From positions 981 through 64,980 of the IMG/VR virus record IMGVR_UViG_3300023174_003694: DNA of 64,000 nucleotides. The stretch is one strand, 5' to 3'. Position 1 is the stretch's first letter. Each line of letters opens with the position of its first letter. Shown in pieces: positions 1,783-62,051 of the stretch. A model generated the notes under the pieces. That model saw only the letters and a program-made list of their open reading frames with translations, ran no database searches and had not been told where the DNA came from. The stretch comes from a virus. Both the position numbers and the translations under genes were made by a program.

Positions 1783-1812
1783 GAATCCTTATATTAAATA
1801 AAAATTAAGTTT

Positions 1813-8803: not shown

Positions 8804-10420
<1,617 letters not shown>

Positions 10421-17293: not shown

Positions 17294-17295
17294 TT

Positions 17296-20620: not shown

Positions 20621-20626
20621 AAACAA

Positions 20627-29167: not shown

Positions 29168-29481
29168 TATACTGTTTTGATTTAGATAATACTTTATGCA
29201 CTACCCTAGGCAATGATTATGAAAAATCAGAGCCAATATCTAATATGATTGTAAAGGTAAATGAATTATATGATGCTGGTCATACAATATTAATTTATAC
29301 AGCTCGTGGAATGTCTACTTATAAAGGTGATGTGGATGCTGTGTATGATGCATTTTATTTATTTACTAAAAACCAAATTAAATCTTGGGGTATTAAGCAT
29401 CATAAATTACAATTAGGTAAGCCTTCATATGATGTATTCATAGATGATAAGAATATGTTAATTAATGATTTTTTAGGTTAA
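29164..29481 (+). CDS. HAD-superfamily phosphatase (GmhB-like, short)
   Basis: MIYCFDLDNTLC is HAD motif I (DxDxT). IYTARG is motif II-like. FIDDK gives motif IV Asp. 105 aa. Confidence 0.5.
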   Translation: MIYCFDLDNTLCTTLGNDYEKSEPISNMIVKVNELYDAGHTILIYTARGMSTYKGDVDAVYDAFYLFTKNQIKSWGIKHHKLQLGKPSYDVFIDDKNMLINDFLG

Positions 29482-29519
29482 TCTAAAAGAATTTCTTATA
29501 TTAAATAAAATTATAAAGA

Positions 29520-30710
29520 ATGGAAAAAATAACATTTTGTATTCCTAGCAAATCTAATTTGCGTTATTTAAAAACATGTATTCCTTCAATTAGAAAGAAT
29601 GCGTTTAGACCTGATCACGATATTATTGTCTTTGTAGATTCAGATGAAGACGGTACTGTAGAGTGGTTAGAGCAAGTTAAAGATGAATACAATCTTTCTT
29701 ATTACGTTAATCCAAATTTAGGAAAATATCTATTTGGAATTGGAAAGGCATATGATTATTGTATTGAAAAATCTACAACAGATATTTTTATGATTTTTCA
29801 TGCGGATATGATGTTAGGTAAGAATGCAGATAAATTAGCATATGACCATTTAGTATATAAAACTGTGGTTTCTGCTACTAGAGTTGAACCGCCTTTACAT
29901 CCTAATAATGGAGAAAAGATTCTAATGGATTTTGGAATGTGGCCAGAGGAATTTAAAGAAGATGAGTTTGATGTATTTGTAGATACATTCAAAGAAGATA
30001 CTAAAGTAACTGACGGTGTATTTGCTCCTTGGATGATGTACAAAAAAGAATTTTTAGCAATAGGAGGTCATGATGAAAGAATGCATTCTTGCAGAGAAGA
30101 TTCTGACGTATTTAATAGATTAGAGTTGGCAGGATTTACATTTGTGCAACCTTGGAATTCTATGGTATATCATTTAACAGGTAGAGGTGCTGGAAGCTTT
30201 GGAGGGGATGAAGCGAGACACGCAGCTTGGCAAAATGATATGATTAGATCTACTAAAGAATTTATTCGCAAATGGGGAAGTAATGTTAAACATACAGCAT
30301 TAATGCATCCAATAATTATTCCAAAATATAATATTGCGTTTGTAGTTGATAATTGCACATTACAAGCTATCGAAGCTTTAGAGCCATGGTGTGATAGATT
30401 ATATATTAAAGGGTCTTTAGATTCTATAGCACATTTACAAGCTGACTATATTACCAAAGAAGCTGAGCATACTTCATTTAGCTTAGTTAAAAGGGTGTTA
30501 AGTGATATGCACAATGATGCTGATGGAGAAAATGATATTGTAGTTCGAATAGATGGTAGAACATTTGACGGAGACGATTTTATTTACATTCAACAGTTAT
30601 CTGAAATAATTAAAGAGTCTGGAACTCCTAATGCAACTTTTGAATTAGGTCATTTACTAATTACAATAAACTCAATGAATGAACTTCAAAACAATTTAAT
30701 CAATGTCTAA
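29520..30710 (+). CDS. glycosyltransferase family 2-like
   Basis: KITFCIPSKSNLRYLKTCIPSI is the GT2 N-terminal block. FVDSDEDG is DxD. Upstream CTTATATTAAATAAAA motif. Confidence 0.45.
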   Translation: MEKITFCIPSKSNLRYLKTCIPSIRKNAFRPDHDIIVFVDSDEDGTVEWLEQVKDEYNLSYYVNPNLGKYLFGIGKAYDYCIEKSTTDIFMIFHADMMLGKNADKLAYDHLVYKTVVSATRVEPPLHPNNGEKILMDFGMWPEEFKEDEFDVFVDTFKEDTKVTDGVFAPWMMYKKEFLAIGGHDERMHSCREDSDVFNRLELAGFTFVQPWNSMVYHLTGRGAGSFGGDEARHAAWQNDMIRSTKEFIRKWGSNVKHTALMHPIIIPKYNIAFVVDNCTLQAIEALEPWCDRLYIKGSLDSIAHLQADYITKEAEHTSFSLVKRVLSDMHNDADGENDIVVRIDGRTFDGDDFIYIQQLSEIIKESGTPNATFELGHLLITINSMNELQNNLINV

Positions 30711-31623
30711 AAGAATATTAGTTACGGGAGGGTTAGGCTTTGTAGGATCTAATTTAGTTGATATGTTAATTAGTCAAGGGCATCAAGTAGATGTAATTGA
30801 TAACTTATCTTCAGAGTCAAGTTCAAAAAAATATGCAAACCCAAAAGCAAATTATGAACTTAGAGATGTCAATGACATTTTACAAATTAAAAATTCAGTT
30901 GGAGTATTAGAAACTAGAACTCAATATGATGTAATTTATCATTTAGCAGCTGAAGCTAGAATTCAACCTTCTTTTGAAGATCCAATGAAATGGTTTCAAT
31001 CTAATATAATGGGCACTGCAGCTGTAATGGAATATGCAAGACTATCAAATTCAAAAGCTGTGGTATATGCAACGACTTCATCTAAAAACCATGGGTCTAA
31101 ATATATATCTCCTTACACTTATTCTAAAGTAGCTGGAGAAAATATATTAAGCACTTACAAATATTGTTATAAAATTAATTGCGCTTCAGCAACATTTTAT
31201 AATGTATATGGACCTAGAGAACCTGAAGTAGGAGAGTTTGCAACAGTAAGAGCAAAATTCCAAAGACAATTTGATAATAATGAACCTATGACTGTTGTAG
31301 GAGATGGTAATCAAACAAGAGACTTTACTCACGTAGATGATATTTGTCAAGGAATGATTGCAATTGCAGAACATTTATTAACCAAACCTCAGCACTCGAA
31401 AATTGTACAAAATTATGATTTAGGTAGAGGAGAGCCGATACCAATAATAGATGTTGCTTTGATGATTTGCAACTATGACCCTTCTAAAATTATGCATGTA
31501 CCTTTAAGAAAAAATGAAGGTAGAGATACTTTGTCATTGTGGCAAGATACACAAAGACAAATTGGTTGGAGAGCAACTAAAGATTTAAAAACATATATAA
31601 ACATAATCAACAATGGAGAATAA
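30703..31623 (+). CDS. NAD-dependent epimerase/dehydratase (extended SDR)
   Basis: ILVTGGLGFVGSNLV is the GxxGxxG Rossmann motif. YTYSK gives the YxxxK catalytic pair. Confidence 0.75.
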   Translation: MSKRILVTGGLGFVGSNLVDMLISQGHQVDVIDNLSSESSSKKYANPKANYELRDVNDILQIKNSVGVLETRTQYDVIYHLAAEARIQPSFEDPMKWFQSNIMGTAAVMEYARLSNSKAVVYATTSSKNHGSKYISPYTYSKVAGENILSTYKYCYKINCASATFYNVYGPREPEVGEFATVRAKFQRQFDNNEPMTVVGDGNQTRDFTHVDDICQGMIAIAEHLLTKPQHSKIVQNYDLGRGEPIPIIDVALMICNYDPSKIMHVPLRKNEGRDTLSLWQDTQRQIGWRATKDLKTYINIINNGE

Positions 31624-31921
31624 CAATTTTCATGATTTACGCAATACATATATTGACTTGCGTAACATGCCTTCAATCGAATTGTTAAATTTTGAAGGAC
31701 CTGTGCTAAAAGCAATTAAAGCTCCTTTTGGGTGTGTAGTAGTAGACCAATGGGACAAAACAGTTGCTATTTGTAATAAAGAACAGCTTCAAGATTTCCT
31801 TTCTGGAAAGACTGATATTACAGATTCCAATAACAAAATCTGGCACTATCCAGCAGAACATGAAGGAGCTAAGTCTAGAACCTCAAAATTAAATGCATTT
31901 ATTAATACAATGTCAATATGA
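31613..31921 (+). CDS. hypothetical protein
   Basis: 102-aa ORF. No motif. Confidence 0.3.
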   Translation: MENNNFHDLRNTYIDLRNMPSIELLNFEGPVLKAIKAPFGCVVVDQWDKTVAICNKEQLQDFLSGKTDITDSNNKIWHYPAEHEGAKSRTSKLNAFINTMSI

Positions 31922-32775
31922 AATCAAAATTAGGAGTAATTGGTCAAGGCTTTGTAGGAAATGCTGTGACTGAAGGAATGTCTCATTGTTATGAAATGAT
32001 AACGTATGACAAAGACCCAAATAAGAAATGTACAGAAAAATCACTATATGATGTGATTAATAAAACAGAAGTAGTATTTTTATGTGTACCTACTCCTATG
32101 TATAAATCAGGAGCTTGTGACTTGTCAATAGTACACAATGCAATGAAAGAAATTTCTGATTCATGTGAAGCATTGAAGAAACATGTTACTGTAGTTCTTA
32201 AATCTACAGTACCGCCAGGCGTCACTGAAACTCTTAATGAGTTGTATGGCAATCATATTGCTGTGGTATTCAACCCAGAATTCTTAACAGAAGCTAATGC
32301 AGTTGAAGATTATAAAAACCAAAATAGAATTATTGTAGGAGGCAATCGCCCAGAGTCTTCTCAAGTAAAACAAATATTTGCAAAAGCATTTCCTCAAGTT
32401 CCGATTATCAAAACATCTTCAACAATTGCAGAAATGGTTAAGTACGTAACTAATACGTTTTTAGCGACTAAAGTTTCATTTGCAAACGAAATGTATCAAA
32501 TTAGCCAAGCTCTAGATATTGATTATGACAAAGTAATTGAGTATGCGCGCTATGATGATAGATTAGGGCAATCACATTGGTCAGTGCCAGGCCCAGACGG
32601 AGATTTTGGATTTGGAGGTCACTGCTTTCCTAAAGATGTAGCAGCTTTAACTTATTTAGCCAAAGCATTAGGAGTAGATCCTATTATGCTAAATGGGACT
32701 GCATATAAAAATAATGATGTTCGAACTGACTTTGATTGGACTAAACAAATTGGGAGAGCAGTCTCTGAAGAATAA
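31918..32775 (+). CDS. UDP-glucose/GDP-mannose 6-dehydrogenase family protein, lacking the C-terminal UDP-binding domain
   Basis: LGVIGQGFVGNAV is the NAD-binding loop. NPEFLTEANAVEDY is the family signature NPEFLxEG. GGHCFPKD carries the catalytic Cys. Only 285 aa. Confidence 0.6.
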   Translation: MKSKLGVIGQGFVGNAVTEGMSHCYEMITYDKDPNKKCTEKSLYDVINKTEVVFLCVPTPMYKSGACDLSIVHNAMKEISDSCEALKKHVTVVLKSTVPPGVTETLNELYGNHIAVVFNPEFLTEANAVEDYKNQNRIIVGGNRPESSQVKQIFAKAFPQVPIIKTSSTIAEMVKYVTNTFLATKVSFANEMYQISQALDIDYDKVIEYARYDDRLGQSHWSVPGPDGDFGFGGHCFPKDVAALTYLAKALGVDPIMLNGTAYKNNDVRTDFDWTKQIGRAVSEE

Positions 32776-33017
32776 TGCAGTACTATATTCTATTACCCGG
32801 AGACACTGAACAAGATGCTATGTTAGAAACTAATCTGTTAGGAGAAGCTTCATTTAAAACATTCTATTCAGGAAGAGGCTTAACAGCATTAATGAAAATG
32901 ATAGATAAAGCTCCTGAGATGCTTGAGCATGTTAGGATTAAATCAGACAAAAACGAAAATTTATCTGTGGAAGAATTTCTAACCAGATTACAACCATTAA
33001 AAATAATTAAATCATGA
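32775..33017 (+). CDS. hypothetical protein
   Basis: 80-aa ORF. Does not resemble the missing UGDH C-terminal domain. Confidence 0.25.
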   Translation: MQYYILLPGDTEQDAMLETNLLGEASFKTFYSGRGLTALMKMIDKAPEMLEHVRIKSDKNENLSVEEFLTRLQPLKIIKS

Positions 33018-33517
33018 TACAAGACGAAAATTCAAAAGTATATCAATCAGAATTAAATTCTGAATTTACAGTACATATTCTTTATAACGGACATCCTGAC
33101 TATGCAGTTATTAAAGAAGGATTAGATGAAATAAAATCAGTAGGAGCTTTATGGGTAGGCACCAAAGACATTTACATTGACGGGGAATCGGTAACGGATA
33201 ATAACGTTGATGAAGATCAAATTCTAGCTCTTGAAGCTCACGAAATAGCACATTCATTGCTTGGACATAAAGCTGGAATGGATGAGCAATCTGAAATAGA
33301 AGCTAATTTATTTGGCATTGCTATGTTAGATATGGACGGATATGAAAGAGCAGCTGAATATTTAAAAGATAAATTGCTAGTAGACAGTGGAATTGCTTAT
33401 GAAGATTTTGAAACTGAATTCAATCAAGATTTTGAAATTACAGAAGAAGAGCTAGCAAAGTGGGATTCTATCATTAAAGATGATATTTTCGAGCCAAAGG
33501 AAGAATTTAACAAGTAA
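33014..33517 (+). CDS. ImmA/IrrE-like HExxH zinc metallopeptidase
   Basis: ALEAHEIAHSLLGH matches the LAHELGHxxLH motif of ImmA/IrrE (COG2856). Confidence 0.45.
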   Translation: MIQDENSKVYQSELNSEFTVHILYNGHPDYAVIKEGLDEIKSVGALWVGTKDIYIDGESVTDNNVDEDQILALEAHEIAHSLLGHKAGMDEQSEIEANLFGIAMLDMDGYERAAEYLKDKLLVDSGIAYEDFETEFNQDFEITEEELAKWDSIIKDDIFEPKEEFNK

Positions 33518-36460: not shown

Positions 36461-36538
36461 AAACCTGATATTTATATTAAATAAAATTGGATAAGAATAT
36501 TCAATTTATCAAGTACAATTATTAAACAAAAACAATTT

Positions 36539-36733
36539 ATGGAAAAGACAGTTTTCGACATCAAAGCAGATTTAGACACATTATGGGCAGATTTCAACGA
36601 TAATCACGTAATCTTTGCCGACAAAGGAAATAAAGCTGCAGCAGCAAGAGCGCGTAAAGCGATCAATGAAATTAAAAAACACGTTACCGCTTATAAGAAA
36701 GCTTCGGTAGAGCACGTTAAAGCAGGTAAATAA
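36539..36733 (+). CDS. small basic protein (possible DNA-binding)
   Basis: KAAAARARKAINEIKKHVTAYKK is a Lys/Ala/Arg-rich helix. 64 aa. Confidence 0.3.
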   Translation: MEKTVFDIKADLDTLWADFNDNHVIFADKGNKAAAARARKAINEIKKHVTAYKKASVEHVKAGK

Positions 36734-36784
36734 TACCTTAACCATTAACTCGTTTTCGAACAGATATTTTAGAATACAATTATT

Positions 36785-37072
36785 ATGACAAAAGAAGAAT
36801 TAACACAGATTATCAAAGAAGAAGTTGCTAAAGAATTGGCAAGTGCTAAATTAGTAAATGAAATTTATGATTTAGATCAAGTGAAATACAGTGCTTCTGT
36901 TCGAAAACAAGTTGATGATTTAGTTACTGTTATTCAAAAGACTCCTAACTTAAACAAGACAGCAGTCGCAGCTATACTAAATGACATCATTATGGCGCTT
37001 GGGTTAAATCGTACTCAAATTACTATGTATATGAATATGATTAAACAACAACGTCAAAAATATAACTTCTAA
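36785..37072 (+). CDS. leader-B family small protein (MTKEELTQIIKEEV N-terminus)
   Basis: N-terminus conforms to the MK.SEL..LI.EEV leader shared by 8 ORFs in this window. Confidence 0.4.
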   Translation: MTKEELTQIIKEEVAKELASAKLVNEIYDLDQVKYSASVRKQVDDLVTVIQKTPNLNKTAVAAILNDIIMALGLNRTQITMYMNMIKQQRQKYNF

Positions 37073-37371
37073 TGAAAAAGTCTGAACTAAGACAATTAAT
37101 TCGTGAAGAAGTAAAAAAAGCTATTAAAGAGTATGGATCAGAGTCTATGTATTACTCTGCCCCAGGAGGTTCCGAACAAATTCGACAAGTGTCAGTACCA
37201 AGAACACAGAAATTTACAGATATCGAAAGATGGAAGATAGTTGCTATGCAGTTAGGTGCTACTATACAAGATAGAGGTGACGATTTAATTGCAGTTATGC
37301 CAAACCAAGATGTATTAGGCACATTTGTTAAACCAAACAAAGTAGGTGAACTTTATTTATATACATCATAA
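37072..37371 (+). CDS. leader-B family small protein (MKKSELRQLIREEV)
   Basis: Canonical leader-B N-terminus. Translationally coupled to the flanking genes. Confidence 0.4.
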   Translation: MKKSELRQLIREEVKKAIKEYGSESMYYSAPGGSEQIRQVSVPRTQKFTDIERWKIVAMQLGATIQDRGDDLIAVMPNQDVLGTFVKPNKVGELYLYTS

Positions 37372-50963: not shown

Positions 50964-52001
50964 ATGAAATCAACTCAACTTAATATTTTACGAAACTTAA
51001 TTCGTGAAGAAGTTAAGAAGTCTTTGGCAGCCAAAGCTCCTATCAATGAAGCGTTTGCGTCTCCTATCTTAAGAAGACTTTTAGCTCAAAAAACTTATAG
51101 AGCGACTATCGCTCCAGCTTTCCAAAAAATGGCTCAAATTGCTTTAGATAAAGTAACAGACGCAGCTATTACTAAAATGGACCCAACTTCTGCTTACAAA
51201 GAACTTAAAAAAGCAGGTAGAAAAGTAGTCGTATTTTACGTTTCAGAAAAAGGAACTACTAACAGCTATGCAAAAGATGCTTATTATCAAAAAATTGAAC
51301 CAGGTACTGTGTTAGGACTTGCTTCAGGCGATAATAAATTCTTTGATGTAAATTACATTAGATACGGAGACGATAAAGGTAAGCGAACTATGAGTACTGG
51401 CGCAGGAGGAGACTCTATTGGTGTTCAAAAAACAGGATCAGGATATGGATCGACAGGATTATATAATGTTAAACGCGTAGCTGAAGTAGCTGACACTGCT
51501 TATGTAATTGATTTAGAAATGTTAAAAGATAAAGGATTAAGTACTTCATCTTTAGCATCACAAAGAGCAATGGCTAAAAGAGGAGCTATAGCATTTAAAT
51601 CAGATGAACAATTCAAAAGAGAAAATTTAGCTAGATATAAAGAAGCTTTGCAAGGTAGAGCAGCTAAAGGAGATGTAGACAGAATGGTGTTAGAAGCTAT
51701 TAATCAAGTAACTAAACAAATATCCGCAGCCGTTGCTGGTAAATCATTATCTCAATATGGAGATGTTCTTATTGGTAAAAGTCCAAAAGGTAGAGATGTA
51801 ACTGCATCAGATGCGTCTAATGCATTGAATAGATTACTTCAACAATTTGCTACATATTCATCTTCTAAAATAGAGTTAGAAAAATCTGCAGCTGGCGATC
51901 CTAATTATCGTTCTAGCTATGCAGAAACTAGATTAAAAGAAGCTGCGTTGGAAATTAAAACGCAATGTATCAAAATCAATAAATTAGATTACGGCTGGTA
52001 A
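50964..52001 (+). CDS. leader-B family protein (MKSTQLNILRNLIREEVKK)
   Basis: N-terminal leader-B motif with LIRE. 345 aa. The rest is Ala/Lys-rich. Confidence 0.4.
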   Translation: MKSTQLNILRNLIREEVKKSLAAKAPINEAFASPILRRLLAQKTYRATIAPAFQKMAQIALDKVTDAAITKMDPTSAYKELKKAGRKVVVFYVSEKGTTNSYAKDAYYQKIEPGTVLGLASGDNKFFDVNYIRYGDDKGKRTMSTGAGGDSIGVQKTGSGYGSTGLYNVKRVAEVADTAYVIDLEMLKDKGLSTSSLASQRAMAKRGAIAFKSDEQFKRENLARYKEALQGRAAKGDVDRMVLEAINQVTKQISAAVAGKSLSQYGDVLIGKSPKGRDVTASDASNALNRLLQQFATYSSSKIELEKSAAGDPNYRSSYAETRLKEAALEIKTQCIKINKLDYGW

Positions 52002-52010
52002 TCATAACTA

Positions 52011-52343
52011 ATGAAAAGACTCATAAACGATCATCTTAAGTATATCATCAGACAGGAAATTAAAAATGCCTTGACTGAAAATAAAATGCAAATTGGGAAT
52101 GGGCAATATTCTGTGCGTGTAATTACGGATAGAAAAGGATTGGCATTGTCATTTTTGCCTGATTCTAAAACTTTAGATATTCCTGTAAATACTCAGGTAG
52201 ATGCTATTAATGATTTACTTAAGAAAAAGCTAGGTGCTCTAGGCAAAGCTTTTTATTTTGAATCAGGTCATGACGCTGCAGGAAGAATATACAGATTAAA
52301 CCCGGATTTGTTCACTGATGTTCTAACTAAATTACTATCTTGA
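52011..52343 (+). CDS. hypothetical protein with a degenerate leader-B-like N-terminus (MKRLINDHLKYIIRQEI)
   Basis: IIRQE loosely resembles the leader. Confidence 0.3.
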   Translation: MKRLINDHLKYIIRQEIKNALTENKMQIGNGQYSVRVITDRKGLALSFLPDSKTLDIPVNTQVDAINDLLKKKLGALGKAFYFESGHDAAGRIYRLNPDLFTDVLTKLLS

Positions 52344-52450: not shown

Positions 52451-52990
52451 ATGAAAGTATCAGAATTAAGACAATTAATAAAGGAACAGGTAACGCAAGT
52501 ACTTGCAGAATCAATCAATGAAGCTTTCGGCGTAGTTGATATTAAAGATATTCACTTTGAAACCGATCCAGTTAAAGCAGAAACTCTTAAAAAAGCTTAT
52601 GGTAAATCAACCGGAGAGATGTTTCCTTCTAAACAAATAGAGTCTGCAAATTATGCTTTAGCAAAATTTAGAAAGCAAATTAAATATGACAATGGTAAAT
52701 CAGGTCCAGCTGGGTCTACTGATGTATTTATTCCAGGTTCTTCAATGGCAGCATTTTCTACAATGGGAGATGGGCCTCATAAAAAAGCAGTTAGTCGTAA
52801 GACATGGAACCAAAGAGAATATGACAAATGGATTAAATCAATGGCTGGAGATGGCGGTGCAGAAAATGCTTACGATATGGCACAAAATGCTAAACATGAA
52901 CCAGGCTTAATTGATTGGGTAAAAAGAAATGCAGTAAATGGCGAAACTCCATTGGAAAGAATTCAATACGATATCGAAGCTTATACATAA
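52451..52990 (+). CDS. leader-B family protein (MKVSELRQLIKEQV)
   Basis: Canonical leader. Followed by a terminator hairpin at 52999..53024. Confidence 0.4.
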   Translation: MKVSELRQLIKEQVTQVLAESINEAFGVVDIKDIHFETDPVKAETLKKAYGKSTGEMFPSKQIESANYALAKFRKQIKYDNGKSGPAGSTDVFIPGSSMAAFSTMGDGPHKKAVSRKTWNQREYDKWIKSMAGDGGAENAYDMAQNAKHEPGLIDWVKRNAVNGETPLERIQYDIEAYT

Positions 52991-53893: not shown

Positions 53894-54397
53894 ATGTCAT
53901 TATTAGACTCCTTAAAGAATTTAAGACCTGCAGAAAGGTTCAAAGCCTTTTTGATAGTAGTCTTGTTATCATCAATCACTCCATTAGCTACTATATACTT
54001 AAAAACTGATGATTGTAAAGGAATTTCAACTCAGTATGAAAGTTTAGTTGATAATCATACTAAATTAATGGAAACTAATAATAAAATAATTCAAGATAAT
54101 ACTTCGAAAACAGAAGCTATCAGAAGATTAGATTCTATTTTAGTTGCATTTTCTCAACAAAAAGCAATCGTGGCAACTCGAGTAGAGCAAATACCAGTTA
54201 AACAACAAAATCAAGTTGTAGTAAATGATGCTGGAATGGGAGGAACGGGAGAAGTTGCATTAGCTAAAAGTGTAATTGAAGAACCAGAACCTAAAGTATT
54301 AATTGTTAAATCGACTACAACGACAGAATTAAATAAAACACAAAAAGATTTAGTTCAGTGTGCATTGAAAATCACAAACGAATACAAAAATGATTAA
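53894..54397 (+). CDS. membrane-anchored hypothetical protein; first gene of the leader-A array
   Basis: TM FKAFLIVVLLSSITPLATIYL. Its stop codon (GAT TAA) lies inside the ATGATTAAAC leader-coding start of the next gene. Confidence 0.35.
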   Translation: MSLLDSLKNLRPAERFKAFLIVVLLSSITPLATIYLKTDDCKGISTQYESLVDNHTKLMETNNKIIQDNTSKTEAIRRLDSILVAFSQQKAIVATRVEQIPVKQQNQVVVNDAGMGGTGEVALAKSVIEEPEPKVLIVKSTTTTELNKTQKDLVQCALKITNEYKND

Positions 54398-55208
54398 ACT
54401 TAAAGATATATTAACAGAATTAAAGTCTATACAAAACATAGATAAGGTTGATACTACTAAACCATATTCCATAATATGGAACAATGGAGATTTAGTTGCT
54501 ATGTCTCCGGGTGCTATGCCTCCTATGTCTTTAGGTAAGATGTTTCCGATGATGGTTGAGCCTTCTAAGAAAATAGTTAAGCTGCAAGACTATGACGATT
54601 GGTCTAGCTTCAAAGACATTTTGAAAATGCAACAAGCTGTTAAAGATATGCTTAAAGCTAAATTAATTGATATGACCTGGAAGATTGATATTCCAATGTC
54701 TGATGTAAAAAAGAATATTGGTTCATTGAAAATTGCAGAGTTTTTAAAATACAATGCTACATTTTCAAACACAATACCAAAAGCATTTCACGGAACCACT
54801 GATAAAGAATTAGCGTCTATTCAAAAGATAGGTATTGCTCCTCCGTCTAAAACAGATCAAGAAATTCTAAAATGGGATCAATTCTATGGAGAAGATTCAA
54901 AAGATAAAACATATTGGTCAATTGATTTTGATCGTGCTAAGTATTATGCGGAGCATGCTGTTGGATTATATGATAGAATGGGAATAAAAGCAAAGCCTAT
55001 TGTAATTGAAATAAACAATTGGCCAATGTCAATAACAACTGCAGACGATGACTTTCAATCTAATATGAGTATGATTCAAATGTTAGCTGTAATGCAACAT
55101 GGTAAGTTAGATAACACATCAGCTATTCAATCAATTAGAATGACTTCGCAATTTGCTATTAAAGGAAGAGTGCCAGCTTCTAAAATCGTAAAAATATATA
55201 AAGTATGA
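54390..55208 (+). CDS. leader-A family protein (MIKLKDILTE); weak diphtheria-toxin-like H-G-T motif
   Basis: N-terminal MIKLKDILTEL. AFHGTTDKELASIQKIGI resembles the ADP-ribosyltransferase H-Y-E class YHGT block. YY dyad at AKYYAEH. Low confidence for the fold. Confidence 0.3.
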   Translation: MIKLKDILTELKSIQNIDKVDTTKPYSIIWNNGDLVAMSPGAMPPMSLGKMFPMMVEPSKKIVKLQDYDDWSSFKDILKMQQAVKDMLKAKLIDMTWKIDIPMSDVKKNIGSLKIAEFLKYNATFSNTIPKAFHGTTDKELASIQKIGIAPPSKTDQEILKWDQFYGEDSKDKTYWSIDFDRAKYYAEHAVGLYDRMGIKAKPIVIEINNWPMSITTADDDFQSNMSMIQMLAVMQHGKLDNTSAIQSIRMTSQFAIKGRVPASKIVKIYKV

Positions 55209-55792
55209 TAAAACTTAAAGACTTACTTTCTGAAGCTTGTTGGAAAGGATATAAACAAATTGGAATGAAAAAGAAAGGTAAAAGACAAGTGCCTAATTGC
55301 GTTCCAGTAGATGAAGAAATAGTAACAGAAGTGGGAGAAGGTTCTGTTAAACCTTATAAATTTGAAGAAGTTGATCAAGAAGGTAGATTTGTATACATTC
55401 GATTTACTACAGATAAAGGTACTGAATATGAAGTAGATTTAGAATCCATGGAATATCCAGACCCAGACGATGAAGATATGAATGTAGCTGCTATGGGAAT
55501 TGAATTTTTAGCAAAGCAAAAAGGAAAAGACGGATATTCTTCTAAAATAACTACTAATGAAGGAGATATCTTCAAAGTTATGTCTACAGTGTCTGATATA
55601 ATAAAAAAATATCTTAAAAAGCGTATATTCTCGGATGTTGAATATTTAATATACACTCCGTCAAAGAAGCCTGATCAAGGTTCTTCTAAAAACCAAAGAG
55701 ATATGTTGTATAGAAAGTTCATTACACATAACTTTTCAGGAGCTAAATTTATTACCGATTCAAATGGCTGGATTGTCGCTAAAATAAAATAA
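55205..55792 (+). CDS. leader-A family protein (MIKLKDLLSEA)
   Basis: Leader plus ATGA coupling to the upstream gene. Acidic stretch DPDDEDM. Confidence 0.35.
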   Translation: MIKLKDLLSEACWKGYKQIGMKKKGKRQVPNCVPVDEEIVTEVGEGSVKPYKFEEVDQEGRFVYIRFTTDKGTEYEVDLESMEYPDPDDEDMNVAAMGIEFLAKQKGKDGYSSKITTNEGDIFKVMSTVSDIIKKYLKKRIFSDVEYLIYTPSKKPDQGSSKNQRDMLYRKFITHNFSGAKFITDSNGWIVAKIK

Positions 55793-55793
55793 G

Positions 55794-56552
55794 ATGATTA
55801 AATTAAAAGATTTATTAAACGAGTTAGACTTCGGCAAATTTCCATTTACAGACCCAGACGCAGTACAATTAGGTATGATGGAGAAAATGTCTTTGGAAAG
55901 ATTAATTGACAAATACAAATATGTCACAGAACCTAATACCAAAGATGAGCAGAAACTCTTGAAAGATTTAAGTAAGTATTTCGAAAATGAAGAGAATACA
56001 GTGCAAGTTTCAGGATTGAAAGCTCTTTTAGCCGTTAAATCTAAATTTCCGGGTATACTTGACCCTGCTGAAGATGAAGATAATTCTTATGTATATCGAG
56101 GCACTTCAATGCCAATATCAGAGATCTTGAAATACAATTGGGATACATTTCAAAATTCATATAATGGAACTTCATGTGAATGTAAAGGTCCTGTAATGAT
56201 GTCTGCTAAAGGAGACAGAGGGTTTTCTTCATTTTCAGTATTTGAAGACACTGCTATTGACTTTGCTTATGAGCAATACATAGATTTTCCAGCATACTAC
56301 CGTCAAAAGAATTTAGTGCCTGTAGTTACCTCTGTATACATTTCAGAGCCTAACGCTTTATTTAATCCTAAATTTTCTAAAATATTTAACATACACGGTA
56401 ATGAAGGAGAAGTTTTATTAATAGGAACAAAATATAAATCTCCTAAAACTACATTGAAGTTTTTAGATGATTTATTTGATAACGTTAAAGACGCGGGAGA
56501 GTTAGGACCTGAATGGCAAGCTCTAGCTAAACATCTTAAAATTGAATTGTAA
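55794..56552 (+). CDS. leader-A family putative mono-ADP-ribosyltransferase (R-S-E class, T4 Alt/Mod-like)
   Basis: MIKLKDLLNEL leader. Arg motif YVYRGTSMP, then STS motif GFSSFSVF about 43 aa later, then EGE catalytic motif HGNEGEVLLIG about 57 aa after that. Order and spacing fit R-S-EXE ARTs. Confidence 0.5.
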   Translation: MIKLKDLLNELDFGKFPFTDPDAVQLGMMEKMSLERLIDKYKYVTEPNTKDEQKLLKDLSKYFENEENTVQVSGLKALLAVKSKFPGILDPAEDEDNSYVYRGTSMPISEILKYNWDTFQNSYNGTSCECKGPVMMSAKGDRGFSSFSVFEDTAIDFAYEQYIDFPAYYRQKNLVPVVTSVYISEPNALFNPKFSKIFNIHGNEGEVLLIGTKYKSPKTTLKFLDDLFDNVKDAGELGPEWQALAKHLKIEL

Positions 56553-56643
56553 TGGTATATTTTTTACTTTGGATGGCATATGAATTTATAAGACCAAAAT
56601 TAATTTGGTTATGGTATTTCTTAATTAAAAAAGGACAAGGAGA

Positions 56644-57915
56644 ATGATAAAACTTAAAAATTTACTTTTAGAAGTATATAAATTAGACGATTCTGCATTA
56701 AATGAAAACGCATTAACTGATTTATTTAAAAGTGTAAGAACTTATGGATTAGTAAATGCGGTATTAAGAAATGCAGGAACTCCTTTAGGCACCTCCTTAC
56801 TTAATGGATTTAAGACAGGAGCCGCATACAAACCAAATAAAAAAGGAGAAGTGCTTTTTAGTAAAGATGTGTCTTGGTACGACCCAGATAAAGTTCCAGG
56901 CCTAGCTAAACAAGTAGATAATGTTGAGCGTGAGTATGAAAAAGCATGGACAGGTCTTATGAATGTAAAGAAAAAATTATCTAAAAATTTAGGAACTGTA
57001 GATGTAGAAAAGATTAAATCTGGCGATGGAAAGTCTCAGATAACAAAAACTCCAGATATAATTATCAATCACAAAGAGTATCTTGAAGCTAATCTAATAT
57101 TAATGAAAGCAGAAGGTAGCAAAATATATTATTTACACAAGCTACAATTAGCTATGGGTGCTAAAGATAAAGAAAACCCGGAAGGGCTATCTGTACCTAT
57201 ATGGAATGAAAAAGGTGACTGGGTCGGCAACTCTTATGATAAAAAAGACTTATACAAAAAATATCCTAAAAATATAGTAGATGTTGCGTTTACAGACAAA
57301 CCTAAGCCTATGGGTACCAGAATTAAAGATATACAAATTTGGATCGCTGATCTAGAGAAGCAAATTAAAACTGGTGAGAAATTAACTCGAGGTGAAGAAG
57401 CTGAGGTATTAGCACAATACTTTATGCCTCCAGGAGAGGTTGATAAAATAAAAGATAAAAAAGAAGATACTTCTGCTAAGCCTTTGAAAAGTATGAGTGA
57501 TGAAGAGTTGTATAAGTCTTTAGATGATGCTAATGAGAAGCGAATGCATTGGAATGGATATAAAACAGAAAAACCCGAGCAAGCTGCTAAAGCGTTTTTA
57601 GTTTATGCTGAACATAAGTTAGAAAAGTTAATGAGAGCTAGGAAAAAAGAAAAAAATCCAGAGCAATCATTCTTTGACAATACAAGTGCTATGAAGAGGC
57701 TAGGAATTAAATCAACTAAAGACATTAAAGAGTATCCGGATTTAGAAGCAAAGATAGGTATGTCAAGTGAAGACTTATTAAATAGATACAATAAGTATGT
57801 AAATGACATGTATCGTGCTGACGAAGAGTTAGCTGGATGGCAAGATGAAATTAAAAAGAAAACGGCAGATTATAATCAAAAATATGAAACTCCATATAAA
57901 TCAATTTTAAAATGA
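56644..57915 (+). CDS. leader-A family protein (MIKLKNLLLEV), 423 aa
   Basis: Leader. No other motif recognised. Confidence 0.35.
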   Translation: MIKLKNLLLEVYKLDDSALNENALTDLFKSVRTYGLVNAVLRNAGTPLGTSLLNGFKTGAAYKPNKKGEVLFSKDVSWYDPDKVPGLAKQVDNVEREYEKAWTGLMNVKKKLSKNLGTVDVEKIKSGDGKSQITKTPDIIINHKEYLEANLILMKAEGSKIYYLHKLQLAMGAKDKENPEGLSVPIWNEKGDWVGNSYDKKDLYKKYPKNIVDVAFTDKPKPMGTRIKDIQIWIADLEKQIKTGEKLTRGEEAEVLAQYFMPPGEVDKIKDKKEDTSAKPLKSMSDEELYKSLDDANEKRMHWNGYKTEKPEQAAKAFLVYAEHKLEKLMRARKKEKNPEQSFFDNTSAMKRLGIKSTKDIKEYPDLEAKIGMSSEDLLNRYNKYVNDMYRADEELAGWQDEIKKKTADYNQKYETPYKSILK

Positions 57916-58244
57916 TAAAGCTTAAAAATATATTATCGGAAGCAGAGCCTGTAAAAGAAACAAAGGAATTTGAAGAATTTGCAGAAACTCGTATGAATGG
58001 AGCAGAGAAGATTGCAGACACTGCTCAAGAAAAAGGCGGATTAGCTTTACTAACTTGGCATCATTTTAAAGTAAAAGCTCCTTATTATAAGAAAGCTTCT
58101 GAAGGAGAGTTTGATGTAGAGCAAGCAAAAAAAGAATTTGAAGAAACTTACAAAAAGATATCTTTAAACATGACTCAAATTGAATTTCAAAGAGAGGTAG
58201 GTCGTTTAGAAGTTCTTGGAGAGCTATTAATCAAACAAAAATGA
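57912..58244 (+). CDS. leader-A family small protein (MIKLKNILSEA)
   Basis: Leader. ATGA overlap with the upstream gene. Confidence 0.35.
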   Translation: MIKLKNILSEAEPVKETKEFEEFAETRMNGAEKIADTAQEKGGLALLTWHHFKVKAPYYKKASEGEFDVEQAKKEFEETYKKISLNMTQIEFQREVGRLEVLGELLIKQK

Positions 58245-58762
58245 CAAGAGTAAATTTAGATATATTTCAAAAATCAGAGACTGATTTAATATTACGACTT
58301 AGCGATGAGCTTTTAAGTAGTAACTTCAATGCTGGTAATACAGTAATTATTTCAGTATCAGCTGATTATTCTAATATAATTAGTCAAATATTAAGACATT
58401 CGTTAAGTTATAAAGGAGAAATTTGTGATGGATTTAGTATAGACGTGCCTTATCCAGATGAAGTATGGGATTCTACTTACTTACGTGAGTTAGAATCATT
58501 AATGAGTTTATACAGATATAAATTAAATAATAAAAAAATACTATTAGTTGAAGCCGGCGTTATCAGAGGTTCTAATTACAAGTTTATTATAGATTATTTC
58601 AAAAACAATTTACGAATAACTCAAGATATTTATACGTTAGCATTATATGAAAATAGTAGTTCTAAATTTGAATCTGATTTTATAGGAGAATATTATGATG
58701 ATGAAACTCAAGATTTAACATTTTGGTGGGAACGATATAACAAACATTGGAATAATGATTAA
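58241..58762 (+). CDS. hypothetical protein without leader (weak PRTase-like KILLVEAGVIRGSNY)
   Basis: No leader. Its stop is embedded in the next gene's ATGATTAAAC start. Confidence 0.3.
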   Translation: MTRVNLDIFQKSETDLILRLSDELLSSNFNAGNTVIISVSADYSNIISQILRHSLSYKGEICDGFSIDVPYPDEVWDSTYLRELESLMSLYRYKLNNKKILLVEAGVIRGSNYKFIIDYFKNNLRITQDIYTLALYENSSSKFESDFIGEYYDDETQDLTFWWERYNKHWNND

Positions 58763-59909
58763 ACTTAAAGATTTATTAAAGGAATTAGAGTCTAAAGACA
58801 ATTATTACATTGCTAATAATATCATGGAACCTAGATTAGCAGTGAGAAAATATTTCAATGCTAATAAAGACTCTTTGGAAGTACTTATGGATCAAGATAG
58901 ATGGAATGAAGTATATCAAATAATCTTTAAAGAATTTCCACAATTTGAACAACATATACTATCCACTGCAATTAATAGTGAAGCTTTAGATGCAGGATGG
59001 CTAACTAAACAAGTACCTGTAAATACAAAATTATCTTTGGATTCTAATAGTGAAGTAGGAGAAATTCAAACTACAGTTTCTGCTTGGGTAGCTAAAAATA
59101 AAAATAAATTAATAAAGCTAGCAGACGATGATGATTATACAAAATTCTATCAAGCTGCTAGAGATCAATTTCCTGGAGTTCAAGACGATAAACTTTTATT
59201 TGCTTTAAAAGTAGCCGCTGTAGAACATGATATTCATTATGATGTATTGACAGACGGAGTAATCAAACTTAAAGATTTACTAAAAGAAAGCTATAAACTA
59301 TCACTGAAAGATTTAGGAGATGACAATTATAAAGTTATAGCTATTGATAATGGAAAGAATGTAGGAGAATTACAATTTATAAAAAGTAAATTTAAACCTG
59401 TATTGAAAGGAGCTTCAATTGTAGTAGATCCTAACTATCAAAGACAGGGAATTGGATCTGCTATGTATGTATTTGCAGAAAAGCAATTGAAATTAAAATT
59501 TGTTAAAACTGATGATGTTTTAACTGCTAGTGGTAAAGCACTTTGGAATGATCCAAATAGAAAATTTGGTCTTAAAGAATCAGCTCATGATGAAGCATTG
59601 TCTTACACTGAAGAAAAGGCTCTTGAGTTAGCACATAAAAATTGGAGTACATTTACTGGTAAAGTATGTAATTCAGGATTTTGTGATATCTATGCATCTA
59701 AATTATCTAAATTACTTCCAGGCTCTAAACAATGGGACACGGAAGAACAGGGTCCGTCAGGCACTCTTGGTCATGTATGGGTAGAGTTCAAAGGTAAATT
59801 CTATGACGCGGAGACACCTGACGGAGTACGAGATTGGAAAGATCTACCATGGATGCAGGAGTTTTACAAAGCTAAAAAGCAATATCCTAGCGATATTAAA
59901 CAACTATAA
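58755..59909 (+). CDS. leader-A family fusion protein with a second internal leader and a GNAT-like acetyltransferase motif
   Basis: N-terminal MIKLKDLLKEL. Internal in-frame GVIKLKDLLKES at about nt 59255..59290. Downstream VVDPNYQRQGIGSAMYVFAEK is the GNAT motif A (Q/RxxGxG/A). Confidence 0.45.
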   Translation: MIKLKDLLKELESKDNYYIANNIMEPRLAVRKYFNANKDSLEVLMDQDRWNEVYQIIFKEFPQFEQHILSTAINSEALDAGWLTKQVPVNTKLSLDSNSEVGEIQTTVSAWVAKNKNKLIKLADDDDYTKFYQAARDQFPGVQDDKLLFALKVAAVEHDIHYDVLTDGVIKLKDLLKESYKLSLKDLGDDNYKVIAIDNGKNVGELQFIKSKFKPVLKGASIVVDPNYQRQGIGSAMYVFAEKQLKLKFVKTDDVLTASGKALWNDPNRKFGLKESAHDEALSYTEEKALELAHKNWSTFTGKVCNSGFCDIYASKLSKLLPGSKQWDTEEQGPSGTLGHVWVEFKGKFYDAETPDGVRDWKDLPWMQEFYKAKKQYPSDIKQL

Positions 59910-59961
59910 ATAAAATACTTGAATATTTATATTAAATAATTTGGTAGAAAGGAATTAAATT

Positions 59962-59986
59962 CTTATCTTTATATACAGAAATAAAA
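59962..59986 (+). promoter_or_regulatory. promoter-like motif copy (downstream half only)
   Basis: CTTATCTTTATATACAGAAATAAAA just upstream of ATG 59990. Confidence 0.4.
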
Positions 59987-59989
59987 ACT

Positions 59990-61594
59990 ATGAAAAAATC
60001 GGAATTAAGAGAGCTAGTCAGAGAGCAAGTTCGCAATTTAATCAAAGAGGCTAACATATCTCAAGAAGCCTATACAATTCATAACATAACAAAATGTGGG
60101 CAAGATGCCGCTCAAAATTTCATTGATGACAATAAATTAGACGGTAAAAAGTTAGCTGCTTATGTTAGACAACACTCAAACTCAAAAGAAAAGTATGAAG
60201 TTCGAGATATTATTGCTGGTACAGGGGTAGGAGCTAACGTTAGTTTTAAAGCTAGATTCCTTAAACAATTTAAAGAATCTGTAATTAAAGAAGCTAAAGA
60301 ATATACTTTCACTTTTGATTACAATACAGATCCTGATGATATCGAATACATTGAAAATTTATTGAAAAAAGCAAGAGTAAATGCTTATGCTGAGCAAGGA
60401 ACTTTCGATGATGAAATGGTAATCAAAGCAGGAGATGCAATTGAATTACGTAAGGCTAAAAAAGCAATTGAAGCTGATGGATTTCAAATCAACGAAGCTT
60501 CTTTAAAAGAAGCTAACGAGTTATCTTCATATAAAATAGGAGATCAAATCAAATTTTCTAACGGGGAGATTTGGAAAGTAGCTAAACCAGGAGTGAAAGG
60601 AGATAAGATATTTTTAGCTCCATTCAATTCTATTGCAAAGAAAGGACATATTTCATTAGCAATTGAATTCAGTCAAGATGAATTAAACGATACAGTGACA
60701 GAATCTATAAACGAAGCTGCTAACGATATATCATACATCAACAAAGCTAGAGCAAAATCTTCTTTGGAACAAATTAAAAAAGGAAAACGTTCTGATGGTA
60801 TGGGTAAATTCGATGCTAAAGTATATGCTATCAAAGGAACTCAAGAGATTGAATTAACAGATCCTTCAGACTTAGCTAAATATTCCACAGGATACAAATA
60901 TGGATTGAAATCAGAATCTATTAATGAAGCATTAATAGGACCTTTTGCAATTTCAAACTCTACTCCAGATGACGAGTTGATAGCGATGTATCACGGAGCG
61001 TTAGACGGATATGCTAATTACAAACCAGGAATGAAATTTAAAAAATCAGACTATAAATTAGCTTATCAAACTATAGAGAAAATACTTCAGAAAAAAGGAG
61101 TTGCTATTACAGAAGCCGATGACCCAGAAGCTGGAGAAGCAGCTCCATACGGTTCAGGATATTCTGAAGTAAATGAAGACGCGGGAATGGTTATTGATGT
61201 AGCAATGGGCGTTGCAGTAGGCTTAATGGGTTTATGGGCATTGGTTCAAAGTGCTCCTTTAGTAGGTAGAGTATTTGGGGATGCAGCAGAGTATTTAGCT
61301 AATAAATCTGAAAAGAAAGCTAAATTAGCATTGAAAAATCAAAGAAAAGAAACGATAGCTCCTATCATTGCCAAATTTAAAAATGACAAGCAGTTAGCTG
61401 ATATGTATCAAAACTTAACTCCATATAGCGCAGCAGCTAAATTAGGTAGCAGTCAAGCTGGACTTAAAGCACAACAAGGAAGAGTGAACCAATTAACAAA
61501 AATTGGTAAATACATTAAATCTAAATTAACTCCTGAAGAATTAGTATATTTCAGAGACATATCTGCAATGTTAAGAGATGGAGACTTAAAATAA
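59990..61594 (+). CDS. leader-B family large protein (MKKSELRELVREQV) with C-terminal TM segment
   Basis: Leader. Hydrophobic VIDVAMGVAVGLMGLWALV near the C-terminus. Promoter-motif copy (59962..59986) and an ATATTTATATTAAATAA motif upstream. Confidence 0.4.
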   Translation: MKKSELRELVREQVRNLIKEANISQEAYTIHNITKCGQDAAQNFIDDNKLDGKKLAAYVRQHSNSKEKYEVRDIIAGTGVGANVSFKARFLKQFKESVIKEAKEYTFTFDYNTDPDDIEYIENLLKKARVNAYAEQGTFDDEMVIKAGDAIELRKAKKAIEADGFQINEASLKEANELSSYKIGDQIKFSNGEIWKVAKPGVKGDKIFLAPFNSIAKKGHISLAIEFSQDELNDTVTESINEAANDISYINKARAKSSLEQIKKGKRSDGMGKFDAKVYAIKGTQEIELTDPSDLAKYSTGYKYGLKSESINEALIGPFAISNSTPDDELIAMYHGALDGYANYKPGMKFKKSDYKLAYQTIEKILQKKGVAITEADDPEAGEAAPYGSGYSEVNEDAGMVIDVAMGVAVGLMGLWALVQSAPLVGRVFGDAAEYLANKSEKKAKLALKNQRKETIAPIIAKFKNDKQLADMYQNLTPYSAAAKLGSSQAGLKAQQGRVNQLTKIGKYIKSKLTPEELVYFRDISAMLRDGDLK

Positions 61595-61600
61595 TCTATC

Positions 61601-61816
61601 ATGAAAAATACAGAATTAAAAGCTCTTATAAGAGAAGAAGTTAGAAAAGCGCTAAATGAAGACATTGATATTCACAATGATGAGTCTGCAATGAAAGCTC
61701 TAGAAGATATCGCAGTTAACATGACAAAATGGAAAGGTTCTGAAGGAGCTCATTATACAGATTTACTAGAGAAAGTAATAGACTTTTTGAAATACGGTAA
61801 CCATAGAACGAATTAA
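61601..61816 (+). CDS. leader-B family small protein (MKNTELKALIREEV)
   Basis: Leader. Confidence 0.35.
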   Translation: MKNTELKALIREEVRKALNEDIDIHNDESAMKALEDIAVNMTKWKGSEGAHYTDLLEKVIDFLKYGNHRTN

Positions 61817-61817
61817 A

Positions 61818-62051
61818 ATGAAAAAATCAGAATTAAGATCTCTTGTAAGAGAATGTGTATGTGATACTTTAAAGGAAGGCACTATGGTAGACTTCGCTAA
61901 CTATTATAGAGCTTATGACTCAGATGTAAAAGAAGCTGCAAGAGCTTTAGATAAAATAATTGAGGAATCAGGAGCAGGATCGGAAGAACTATTTGATGCT
62001 ATTACTGATTTAGTTGATGCAGTTAGAGCAGATCAAGACGCTGAAATATAA
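61818..62051 (+). CDS. leader-B family small protein (MKKSELRSLVRECV)
   Basis: Leader. Followed by a 10-bp-stem terminator at 62063..62090. Confidence 0.35.
   Translation: MKKSELRSLVRECVCDTLKEGTMVDFANYYRAYDSDVKEAARALDKIIEESGAGSEELFDAITDLVDAVRADQDAEI

Follow-up and report, generated by a model that had tools for sequence, protein, structure and literature searches.

Proteins that are injected together with phage DNA act before phage gene expression and are a source of anti-restriction and host-takeover functions, as exemplified by IPI* and Alt of phage T4; to our knowledge, such proteins are not recognisable from sequence beyond a few model phages. In T4, the first 10 residues of the internal protein IPIII constitute a capsid-targeting sequence (CTS) that is sufficient for targeting to the head, with residues 4 and 7 counting for targeting and residues 8 and 10 for processing; the propeptides of T4 head proteins comprise 10–20 residues and the prohead protease gp21 cleaves after L/I-x-E (PMC9026906, PMC5694885). 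The internal proteins of T-even phages have been reviewed as diverse, with the CTS alone in common, and the concept itself is already known for these phages (PMC3012670, PMC9026906). Here, we describe two N-terminal leaders, referred to as class A and class B, on a series of open reading frames (ORFs) in a 64-kb stretch of virus DNA (positions 981 to 64,980 of the IMG/VR virus record IMGVR_UViG_3300023174_003694; hereafter, the window). It is probable that they belong to a T4-style system of capsid targeting and cleavage in a distant, very abundant T4-like clade, in which packaging, cleavage and injection of the tagged proteins are predicted from sequence. The leader sequence pair, the breadth of its use, its presence on head-module genes and the ADP-ribosyltransferase (ART) cargo are what is new here.

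Several features are shared with T4 IPI, IPII and IPIII: a propeptide of 10 (IPII and IPIII) or approximately 20 residues (IPI, with ITE ending at residue 19) that ends in (L/I)-x-E, a tag placed on otherwise unrelated proteins, a protease of the S77 family, as seen in clade head modules, and a leader that resembles the N-terminus of the scaffold protein. When the T4 CTS, MKTYQEFIAE, was compared with class A, M1, hydrophobic residues at positions 4, 7 and 8, an acidic residue at position 6 and E10 were common to both, which is a likeness of pattern only; no sequence homology of the window leaders to the T4 CTS was found, and we regard them as an analogue rather than a demonstrable homologue. 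They differ from the T4 internal proteins in that the leaders read MIKLKDLLxE and MKxSELRxLIREEV(R/K)KxLxE and are known from sequence alone, in their much larger scale (the 64 kb alone carry at least 14 such genes, and the IMG/VR matches listed include more than 200 distinct ORFs with a tag) and in that many tagged genes of the clade sit inside head and tail modules. Among other T4 head proteins, gp24 starts with MAKINELLRE, which is close to class A. The genes of two small T4 head proteins, gp67 and gp68, lie between those for the portal and the protease, a location shared by many leader ORFs of the clade. In contrast to gp67 and gp68, the members in the window lie outside the head module, and no sequence homology to these two proteins was found, no profile search having been made.

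Many head-internal proteins of the giant phages phiKZ, 201phi2-1 and SPN3US are cut after Glu, within a three-residue motif, by a protease related to gp21 (PMC9026906, PMC5694885). However, their motif is (S/A/G)-x-E, their propeptides are mostly 60–130 residues long, no short tag is shared and they belong to another lineage. The Dar anti-restriction proteins of phage P1 are accessory anti-defence proteins that are loaded into the head via N-terminal targeting regions and injected. Unlike the proteins described here, they are without a shared short leader carrying a protease site, their capsid lineage is different, and their loading needs other Dar proteins. Capsid targeting in P1 has been discussed previously (PMC9024508).

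The class A and class B leaders and their genes

Class A is a 10-residue leader, MIKLK(D/N)(L/I)L-x-E, that starts six ORFs of the window (54390, 55205, 55794, 56644, 57912 and 58755; ORFs were called mechanically and are named here by their start) with a pairwise identity of 80%; within this set, residues 4, 8 and 10 do not vary, and either L or I stands at residue 7. A previous sequence-only reading of the same DNA had described these six ORFs as consecutive. All six leaders are present, but the ORFs are not strictly consecutive, since the leaderless ORF 58241-58762 intervenes, and a seventh copy, VIKLKDLLKE, inside ORF 58755 had been missed. Class B is a 20-residue unit for which eight ORFs had been named; five of them are clear (37072, 52451, 59990, 61601 and 61818) and start with MK(K/V/N)(S/T)EL(R/K)xL(I/V)(R/K)E(E/Q/C)V, while 36785, 50964 and 52011 carry only diverged or weak variants. 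The (L/I/V)-x-E ending attributed to class B stands, but its conserved position is at residues 18–20, and LIRE at residues 9–12 is not the sole site. Nine of the 14 leader ORFs lie inside the region 53894-62051 to which the array had been assigned, and the other five at 36.8–37.4 kb and 51.0–53.0 kb. All six class A ORFs and the five clear class B ORFs fit the propeptide pattern, i.e., approximately 10–20 residues ending in (L/I)-x-E, and the class B core L-(R/K)-x-L-I-R-E parallels L-K-D-L-L-x-E of class A.

Class A leader ORFs and features among them:
54390..55208, + strand: leader MIKLKDILTE (nt 54390-54419), then a 262-aa Tpt1/DarT-type ART-fold protein with an invariant FHGTT motif
55205..55792, + strand: leader MIKLKDLLSE, directly followed by the motif CWKGYKQIGMKKKGKRQVPNCVP and then a weak DUF6934-like region
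55794..56552, + strand: leader MIKLKDLLNE, then an ART-fold protein with an R-S-ExE signature
56644..57915, + strand: leader MIKLKNLLLE, then a 413-aa protein with no family match
57912..58244, + strand: leader MIKLKNILSE, then a 100-aa acidic protein
58241..58762, + strand: leaderless 173-aa ORF between the class A ORFs 57912 and 58755, matching phrog_29004 (E 9.5e-37)
58755..59909, + strand: leader MIKLKDLLKE on a fusion of an N-terminal domain, an internal leader copy, a GNAT domain and a C-terminal domain
59259..59288, + strand: internal class A copy VIKLKDLLKE, residues 169-178 of ORF 58755, just ahead of the GNAT domain

Class B leader ORFs:
36785..37072, + strand: diverged class B-like leader MTKEELTQIIKEEVAKELASAKLVNE, 95-aa protein; the intergenic motif ATATTTATATTA lies at 36468, upstream of its small operon
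37072..37371, + strand: class B leader MKKSELRQLIREEVKKAIKE, then a 79-aa protein
50964..52001, + strand: diverged, longer class B leader MKSTQLNILRNLIREEVKKSLAAKAPINE, then a basic protein of approximately 316 aa; a variant of the ATATTTAT motif upstream
52011..52343, + strand: weak class B-like leader MKRLINDHLKYIIRQEIKNALTE, 110-aa protein; the weakest member
52451..52990, + strand: class B leader MKVSELRQLIKEQVTQVLAE, then a 159-aa protein with no family match
59990..61594, + strand: class B leader MKKSELRELVREQVRNLIKE (nt 59990-60049), then a 514-aa protein; ATATTTATATTA upstream at 59923
61601..61816, + strand: class B leader MKNTELKALIREEVRKALNE, then a 51-aa acidic protein
61818..62051, + strand: class B leader MKKSELRSLVRECVCDTLKE, then a 57-aa very acidic protein (pI 4.1)

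The first ORF of the region 53894-62051, ORF 53894-54397, is without a leader. Only one strict match in the window, the copy VIKLKDLLKE inside ORF 58755, was not N-terminal; otherwise, the strict class A and class B motifs were found at residue 2 or 5 of + strand ORFs only, and 56 minus-strand control ORFs gave no strict match. A chance origin was rejected, as the motifs stand at coding-strand ORF starts only and the IMG/VR matches amount to at least approximately 120 loci per leader against few expected (by hand estimates, few matches for class A and fewer than one for class B). The mature parts, taken after residue 10 or 20, had no BLASTP similarity to one another (all pairs E > 0.1 in a 14-sequence database), in agreement with the earlier claim that the proteins are unrelated beyond the leader. 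The same tag therefore stands on unrelated proteins, and the folds of the cargo differ (two ART branches and one GNAT); recent paralogy of the array was rejected on these grounds.

No conservation was seen in the DNA upstream of the leader ORFs in the window. In 101 leader ORFs from many phages, every synonymous codon was used, with a mild A/T bias (toward ATT and TTA), and the E codons of the leaders matched the usage in the body (p 0.74). As the upstream DNA is unconserved and synonymous codons vary, the conservation is in the peptide and not in the RNA, and conservation at the RNA level was rejected.

The use of both leaders beyond the window was analyzed by scanning IMG/VR with degenerate DNA patterns, which fixed only MIKLKDLL for class A and residues 1–13 (M-K-x-x-E-(L/F)-R-x-L-I-R-E-E) for class B. 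Residues fixed by these patterns carry no information on conservation, and the counts, at least 120 stretches for class A and likewise at least approximately 120 for class B, are lower bounds from an arbitrary sample; the figures that follow refer to the matches listed. Nearly all class A matches were located at ORF starts. In 111 unique class A ORFs, position 9 was free (N 17, L 17, T 16, K 13, others), position 10, which the pattern had not fixed, was E in 97, and from position 11 onward the sequence was free again. A comparable profile was observed for class B, with 118 unique ORFs: among the 117 of full length, residue 18 was L, I or V in 95 and residue 20 was E in 95, residue 19 was free and diversity followed, while V/I at residue 14 and K at residue 16 were further preferences outside the fixed pattern. 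The ending of both leaders in (L/I/V)-x-E with unrelated sequence after it, as proposed by the sequence-only reading, was thus seen in more than 200 independent ORFs. Hybrids of class A and class B leaders also occur (e.g., MIKLKEIIREELLNE).

Orthologues gave the same picture, since both for ORF 55794 (45–92% identity) and for ORF 54390 (46–94% identity) the leader was better kept than the rest of the protein and its position 9 was free. The leader is predicted to be helical and amphipathic. Cultured phages yielded no tblastn match to a 21-aa class B leader, a query that was probably too short, and the leader strings did not occur in the searchable full text of the literature. Approximately 78% of the leader loci of at least 5 kb share one or more non-leader genes with the reference genomes of the clade. 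In a jumbo-size IMG/VR contig (3300023179_004209, 295.8 kb; L076:3771-10900), five ORFs within approximately 7 kb start with MIKLKDLL(T/L)E; they form a paralogous family that then shares ...P(D/S/N)IF(I/V)PR(R/K)(M/I)EDR..., and the stretch read had no other similarity to the reference clade.

Head modules, prohead protease and predicted maturation sites of the clade

The window has a G+C content of approximately 31% and genes exclusively on the + strand, and contains a long accessory region. The family-B DNA polymerase encoded there has 41% identity with the enzyme of Microcystis phage Mel-JY01 and approximately 30% with those of cyanomyoviruses and T4-like cyanophages; clamp-loader genes are also present, and the gene order is syntenic with Mel-JY01 at an offset of approximately 69.6 kb. 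As judged from polymerase identity and synteny, the window phage is a distant T4-like myovirus, in line with the T4 likeness that had been suggested for the leaders. No megablast match to the region was obtained among INPHARED phages, and no near-identical phage is found there. Cultured members of the clade are Mel-JY01 (PP395634), in which proteins with MIKLKSLLQE are encoded at 60276 and 60923, and Flavobacterium phage vB_FspM_immuto (NC_055915), which has Flavobacterium as its host and carries leaders of the type MKKSQ. A Bacteroidetes host, also proposed earlier, is plausible for the window phage given this cultured member and the presence of bS21 in head modules. The bS21 gene is annotated inside the head module of Mel-JY01 (L125:22183-22410), and short ORFs that look like bS21 by eye were seen at the same place in two other modules (L023:11550-11747 and L085:8121-8360), on the same strand as the head genes. 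Published Bacteroidetes phages carry a bS21 gene, on the strand opposite to their head genes (PMC9723584); we infer that the clade is identical with these bS21-encoding phages.

Among the matches listed, which had been found by the leader alone, head or tail genes were present on approximately 35 of the 120 loci for class A and on 47 of the 117 for class B. These genes, 45–70% identical to those of Mel-JY01, comprise terminase, portal, protease, scaffold-like, capsid, sheath and tube genes, and the leader ORFs immediately flank the prohead protease gene on either side, follow the capsid gene or stand closely behind the tail tube gene. In many relatives (L193, L194, L210, L212, L266, L323:10455 and others), one to four class B ORFs stand in tandem directly downstream of the tail tube gene, a neighbourhood that forms a second hot spot of tagged genes besides that of the protease.

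The prohead protease of the clade belongs to PF03420 (Peptidase_S77, the gp21 family; E 6e-30), its capsid protein to Gp23 and its portal to Portal_T4. The clade proteases share 30–35% identity with T4 gp21 and retain H85, S140 and an Asp without exception, and the family numbers at least 7,998 clusters at 90% identity in metagenomes, with PF03420 in all of the 120 best listed. A Peptidase_S77 protease was present in every clade head module seen. It is not inside the 64-kb window; because of the synteny with Mel-JY01, the head module of the window phage is expected approximately 45 kb upstream of the window. Two ENA contigs (ERZ27247972 k141_76578 and ERZ2680843 NODE_1070) carry the window and run approximately 60 kb further upstream, far enough to be expected to include this module; 10 kb of that extension was read.

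A more complete view was provided by the IMG/VR contig 3300027754_000039 (181.6 kb), whose DNA polymerase is 84% identical to that of the window. A walk of approximately 50 kb upstream on this contig passed recombination and replication genes, tail genes, gp13, PhoH and a p154-like gene, and the contig has a class B ORF (MKQSELQNLIRQEIKKSLKE) adjoining the tail tube gene and a 135-aa ORF starting with MKLKDLLE. Its capsid gene encodes AKQLVTE↓A and its scaffold gene MKDLLKE↓A (arrows mark the cleavage site, predicted in the clade proteins). The C-terminal 58 residues of an S77 protease, 77% identical to those of a relative (E 3e-26), lie at the end of the DNA read. A search of the rest of the genome for a gp21-family protease had been proposed as a check on the sequence-only reading; in relatives, the enzyme was found in clade head modules and, as its C-terminal part, on this contig.

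Comparison with the processing sites of capsid and scaffold proteins, also proposed earlier, revealed that the end of the leader matches two sequences of the clade, the predicted maturation site of the capsid protein and the N-terminus of the scaffold. The predicted capsid site, A(K/R)QL(L/I/V)xE↓(A/S/T), aligns with FLTE↓AEIGG of T4 gp23; it is embedded in LENQA(K/R)QL(L/I/V)xE↓(A/S/T)xxTG, and the Pfam Gp23 model begins just after it. The scaffold-like protein encoded upstream of the capsid gene starts with M(x)(K/D)DLLKE↓AIADAK in most modules and with MIKRDILAE↓A in one, again as predicted sites. With these sites aligned, the last six residues of class A (K-D-L-L-x-E) copy the scaffold N-terminus and resemble the capsid site. 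Parallels in T4 are gp22 (MLKEQLIAE↓A), IPII and IPIII (MKTYQEFIAE↓A), the gp24 start MAKINELLRE and the 19-residue propeptide of IPI ending in ITE.

Further, homologues of ORF 54390 were located between the capsid and PhoH genes and gp13 inside the structural module of two ENA contigs (74% and 62% identity; 87 and 183 kb). A 45% homologue was found upstream of bpMoxR, beside fewer and different leader genes, in an accessory region that shares synteny with the window. Since homologues occur in both places, tagged genes move between the structural module and the plastic accessory region.

Proposed capsid targeting and alternative explanations

We propose that the class A and class B leaders are propeptides acting like the T4 capsid-targeting sequences. 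The leader would be a short amphipathic helix that docks the new protein on the scaffolding core of the assembling prohead, and its (L/I/V)-x-E end would be the site for the gp21-family (Peptidase_S77) prohead protease of the phage. Once the shell has closed, the protease would cut class A leaders off behind E10 and class B leaders behind E20, perhaps also behind E12, and the mature protein would be left enclosed in the head together with the DNA. On infection, the enzymatic members at least (two ART folds and the GNAT fusion) would leave the head along with the DNA and take effect in the host at an early stage. This explanation is favoured because of the sharp x-E boundary, the adjacency to the protease gene, the match to the capsid and scaffold sites and the S77 protease of the 84% relative; because orthologues keep the leader better than the rest and the ORF 54390 family occurs between the capsid gene and gp13; and because the ART-fold cargo is like the packaged T4 Alt and the internal leader copy stands at a domain junction. 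All computationally testable parts of the sequence-only reading came out as predicted, and overall it was supported.

More tentatively, the leaders might be portable address tags across a very large uncultured clade of T4-like Bacteroidetes phages, so that a leader profile would list the packaged and injected proteome. If so, the list would hold thousands of candidates for host-takeover or anti-defence effectors, including nucleic-acid-directed ARTs delivered with the genome. If the leaders are true targeting and cleavage signals, they would provide a sequence tag for injected proteins in a phage group that is among the most abundant in lakes and seas, a predicted mature N-terminus for each tagged protein and a ready packaging tag for the engineering of clade phages.

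Several points weigh against capsid targeting. A literature search found no virion proteomics for any member of the clade, and the S77 protease and head module of the window phage lie outside the window and are deduced from synteny and from the 84% relative. Because the tripeptide L-x-E occurs commonly in helical proteins, a match to the cleavage motif is weak when taken alone, and approximately one fifth of the longer leader loci have no other similarity to the clade, so that the link to S77 phages may not extend to every locus. From T4 Alt, 6 rather than 10 residues are removed at the N-terminus, along with 63 at the C-terminus (PMC5694885). No clear ATATTTAT motif was found directly upstream of the class A array. 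Lastly, several members are acidic proteins of 50–100 residues, more like core or scaffold parts than effectors; some of these small acidic members may be prohead-core parts.

Extended to most tagged proteins, this would mean that the leaders are cleaved head propeptides, but on parts of the prohead core that are degraded or expelled at maturation rather than on injected effectors. Many leader ORFs of relatives are indeed small and occupy sites among the portal, protease and capsid genes at which T4 encodes gp67, gp68 and gp22, and the window members 61601, 61818 and 57912 are short and acidic. However, the array of the window is situated in an accessory region approximately 100 kb from the predicted head module, it includes two ART folds, a GNAT and proteins of 272–534 aa, which are atypical of scaffold parts, and its cargo, like the internal proteins of T4, is very diverse and is replaced from one relative to the next; we consider a core role for most members unlikely. 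Uncleaved amphipathic helices docking onto a partner other than the prohead core, be it the GroEL/Cpn10 chaperonin, an assembly hub or a membrane site, would agree with the predicted helicity and amphipathicity of the leader, with the Cpn60 and Cpn10 encoded by the phage itself and with the ability of the T4 gp23 N-terminus to target fusions to GroEL (PMC3012670). Such docking would leave unexplained the invariant E after a free residue, the abrupt loss of conservation behind it and the agreement with both the site of capsid maturation and the start of the scaffold protein, and is judged quite improbable.

The codon data bear on another explanation, under which the conserved start would serve translation as a signal in the RNA or the nascent peptide, e.g., for Shine-Dalgarno-less initiation by ribosomes with phage bS21. 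The leader is A/U-rich, located exactly at the start codon and has no Shine-Dalgarno sequence in view upstream, its codons are slightly biased to ATT and TTA, and the clade head module has bS21, which has been proposed to select late phage mRNAs (PMC9723584). Nevertheless, all synonymous codons are used, the E codons match those of the body, the upstream DNA is unconserved, an intact leader copy lies 168 codons inside an ORF and most late structural genes of the clade are without a leader, all of which speak strongly against a translational signal. The leaders could also be functionless patches of homology left by, and promoting, cassette-shuffling recombination between phages. Points in favour are the turnover of cargo among relatives, the shift of one family between head module and accessory region, the frequent tandem arrangement of leader genes and the fusion of two of them in ORF 58755. 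Against it stand the conservation at the amino-acid level with variable codons and the retention of E10 or E20, with position 9 or 19 free, across hundreds of lineages, which is not to be expected of a neutral patch; we give such patches almost no credence. Shuffling at leaders may well take place as a consequence of the shared tag.

Cargo proteins, intergenic motifs and neighbouring genes

The ART and GNAT assignments of the sequence-only reading held, and there are in fact two ART-fold proteins. ORF 55794 combines an ART fold with the catalytic signature R102, S146-x-S148, E204-x-E206, the R-S-ExE type being typical of the Alt class; as in T4 Alt, an ART-fold enzyme has at its N-terminus a short propeptide, predicted here, that ends in a gp21-type site. 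BLAST detected no similarity of the window ARTs to T4 Alt. ORF 54390, in contrast to Alt, is from a different, Tpt1/DarT-like branch of the ART fold with a conserved NAD-site motif, which suggests a nucleic acid rather than a protein as its target. The GNAT domain of ORF 58755 (residues 188-246) scored above the gathering threshold with both Acetyltransf_7 (29.3 bits, cut-off 27) and Acetyltransf_1 (27.9 bits, cut-off 20.7). This ORF looks like a fusion of two leader genes; if the proposed model is right, the protease would split it in two at the internal leader copy, a predicted site, and free the GNAT half.

In ORF 55205, the motif CWxGYxxxGxKxKxGKxVPNCV is found at residues 9-42 (window 55229-55330), right after the leader, and PHROGs 9737, 4359 and 727 match residues 8-42 via internal parts. 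The cysteine motif recurs in many unrelated clade phage proteins (L023:4869, L113, L315:9570). A 47% identical relative of ORF 57912 was found in locus L102, a related N-terminus and sequence for ORF 50964 in locus L293, and an ortholog of ORF 37072 in an 85% relative (L249) starts with MKVSEFRKLIREEVRKAIKE. For ORF 56644, neither a Pfam or PHROGs match nor, by peptide patterns, a relative in IMG/VR was found, and most cargo proteins had no family match in Pfam and PHROGs. ORF 59990 has one strongly hydrophobic 19-residue segment (residues 401-419) and would, if packaged, be membrane-active cargo; a segment of the same kind is present at residues 18-36 of ORF 53894-54397. In the leaderless ORF 58241-58762, the stretch KILLVEAGVIRGSNY presumably resembles the nucleotide-binding loop of phosphoribosyltransferases.

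Seven copies of the motif ATATTTATATTA, one with a single mismatch, were found in the window (2858, 15874, 34457, 36468, 43491, 46940 and 59923), all intergenic and on the + strand, with none on the - strand. In relatives, near-identical copies lie 10–25 nt upstream of gp13, tail genes and leader ORFs (L310:8281, L310:10847, L313:10870, L323:10434 and L323:10721), and the motif ATATTTATA(T/A)(T/A)A stands ahead of gp13 and tail genes. In the window, ATATTTATATTA precedes the class B gene 59990 and the operon 36539-37371, which holds the class B ORFs 36785 and 37072, and a variant of the ATATTTAT motif precedes 50964 and 53069. From its placement, ATATTTATATTA is probably the late promoter of the clade, and its occurrence before leader genes as well as gp13 and tail genes fits late co-expression. 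A second, longer intergenic motif, approximately AAGAATTAyCTTATCTTTATrTATAGAAAT, was also noticed, the core of which occurs 14 times on the + strand and three times on the - strand (window 14267, 37895, 40959, 47419, 47644, 59962, 62607, 62958 and others); it may be an early or middle promoter. ORF 59990 is preceded by both motifs.

The phage-encoded chaperonin pair consists of Cpn60 (537 aa) at window 8807-10420 and Cpn10 approximately 1.1 kb before the window start (L123:8554-8889). Genes for a PTPS/QueD-like protein, a radical-SAM protein (weak Pfam match) and GTP cyclohydrolase I lie together approximately 0.5–3.2 kb upstream of the window (L123:6806-9526), which suggests a 7-deazaguanine (queuosine-precursor) pathway, possibly used for DNA modification. 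Sugar-nucleotide and glycosyltransferase genes occupy window 388-2829 and 15911-33517, the latter a 17-kb block; a syntenic block is present in Mel-JY01. The genes encode GT1 and GT2 transferases, a DegT aminotransferase, a PglD-like acetyltransferase, a GHMP kinase, an epimerase/dehydratase and a UDP-glucose dehydrogenase.

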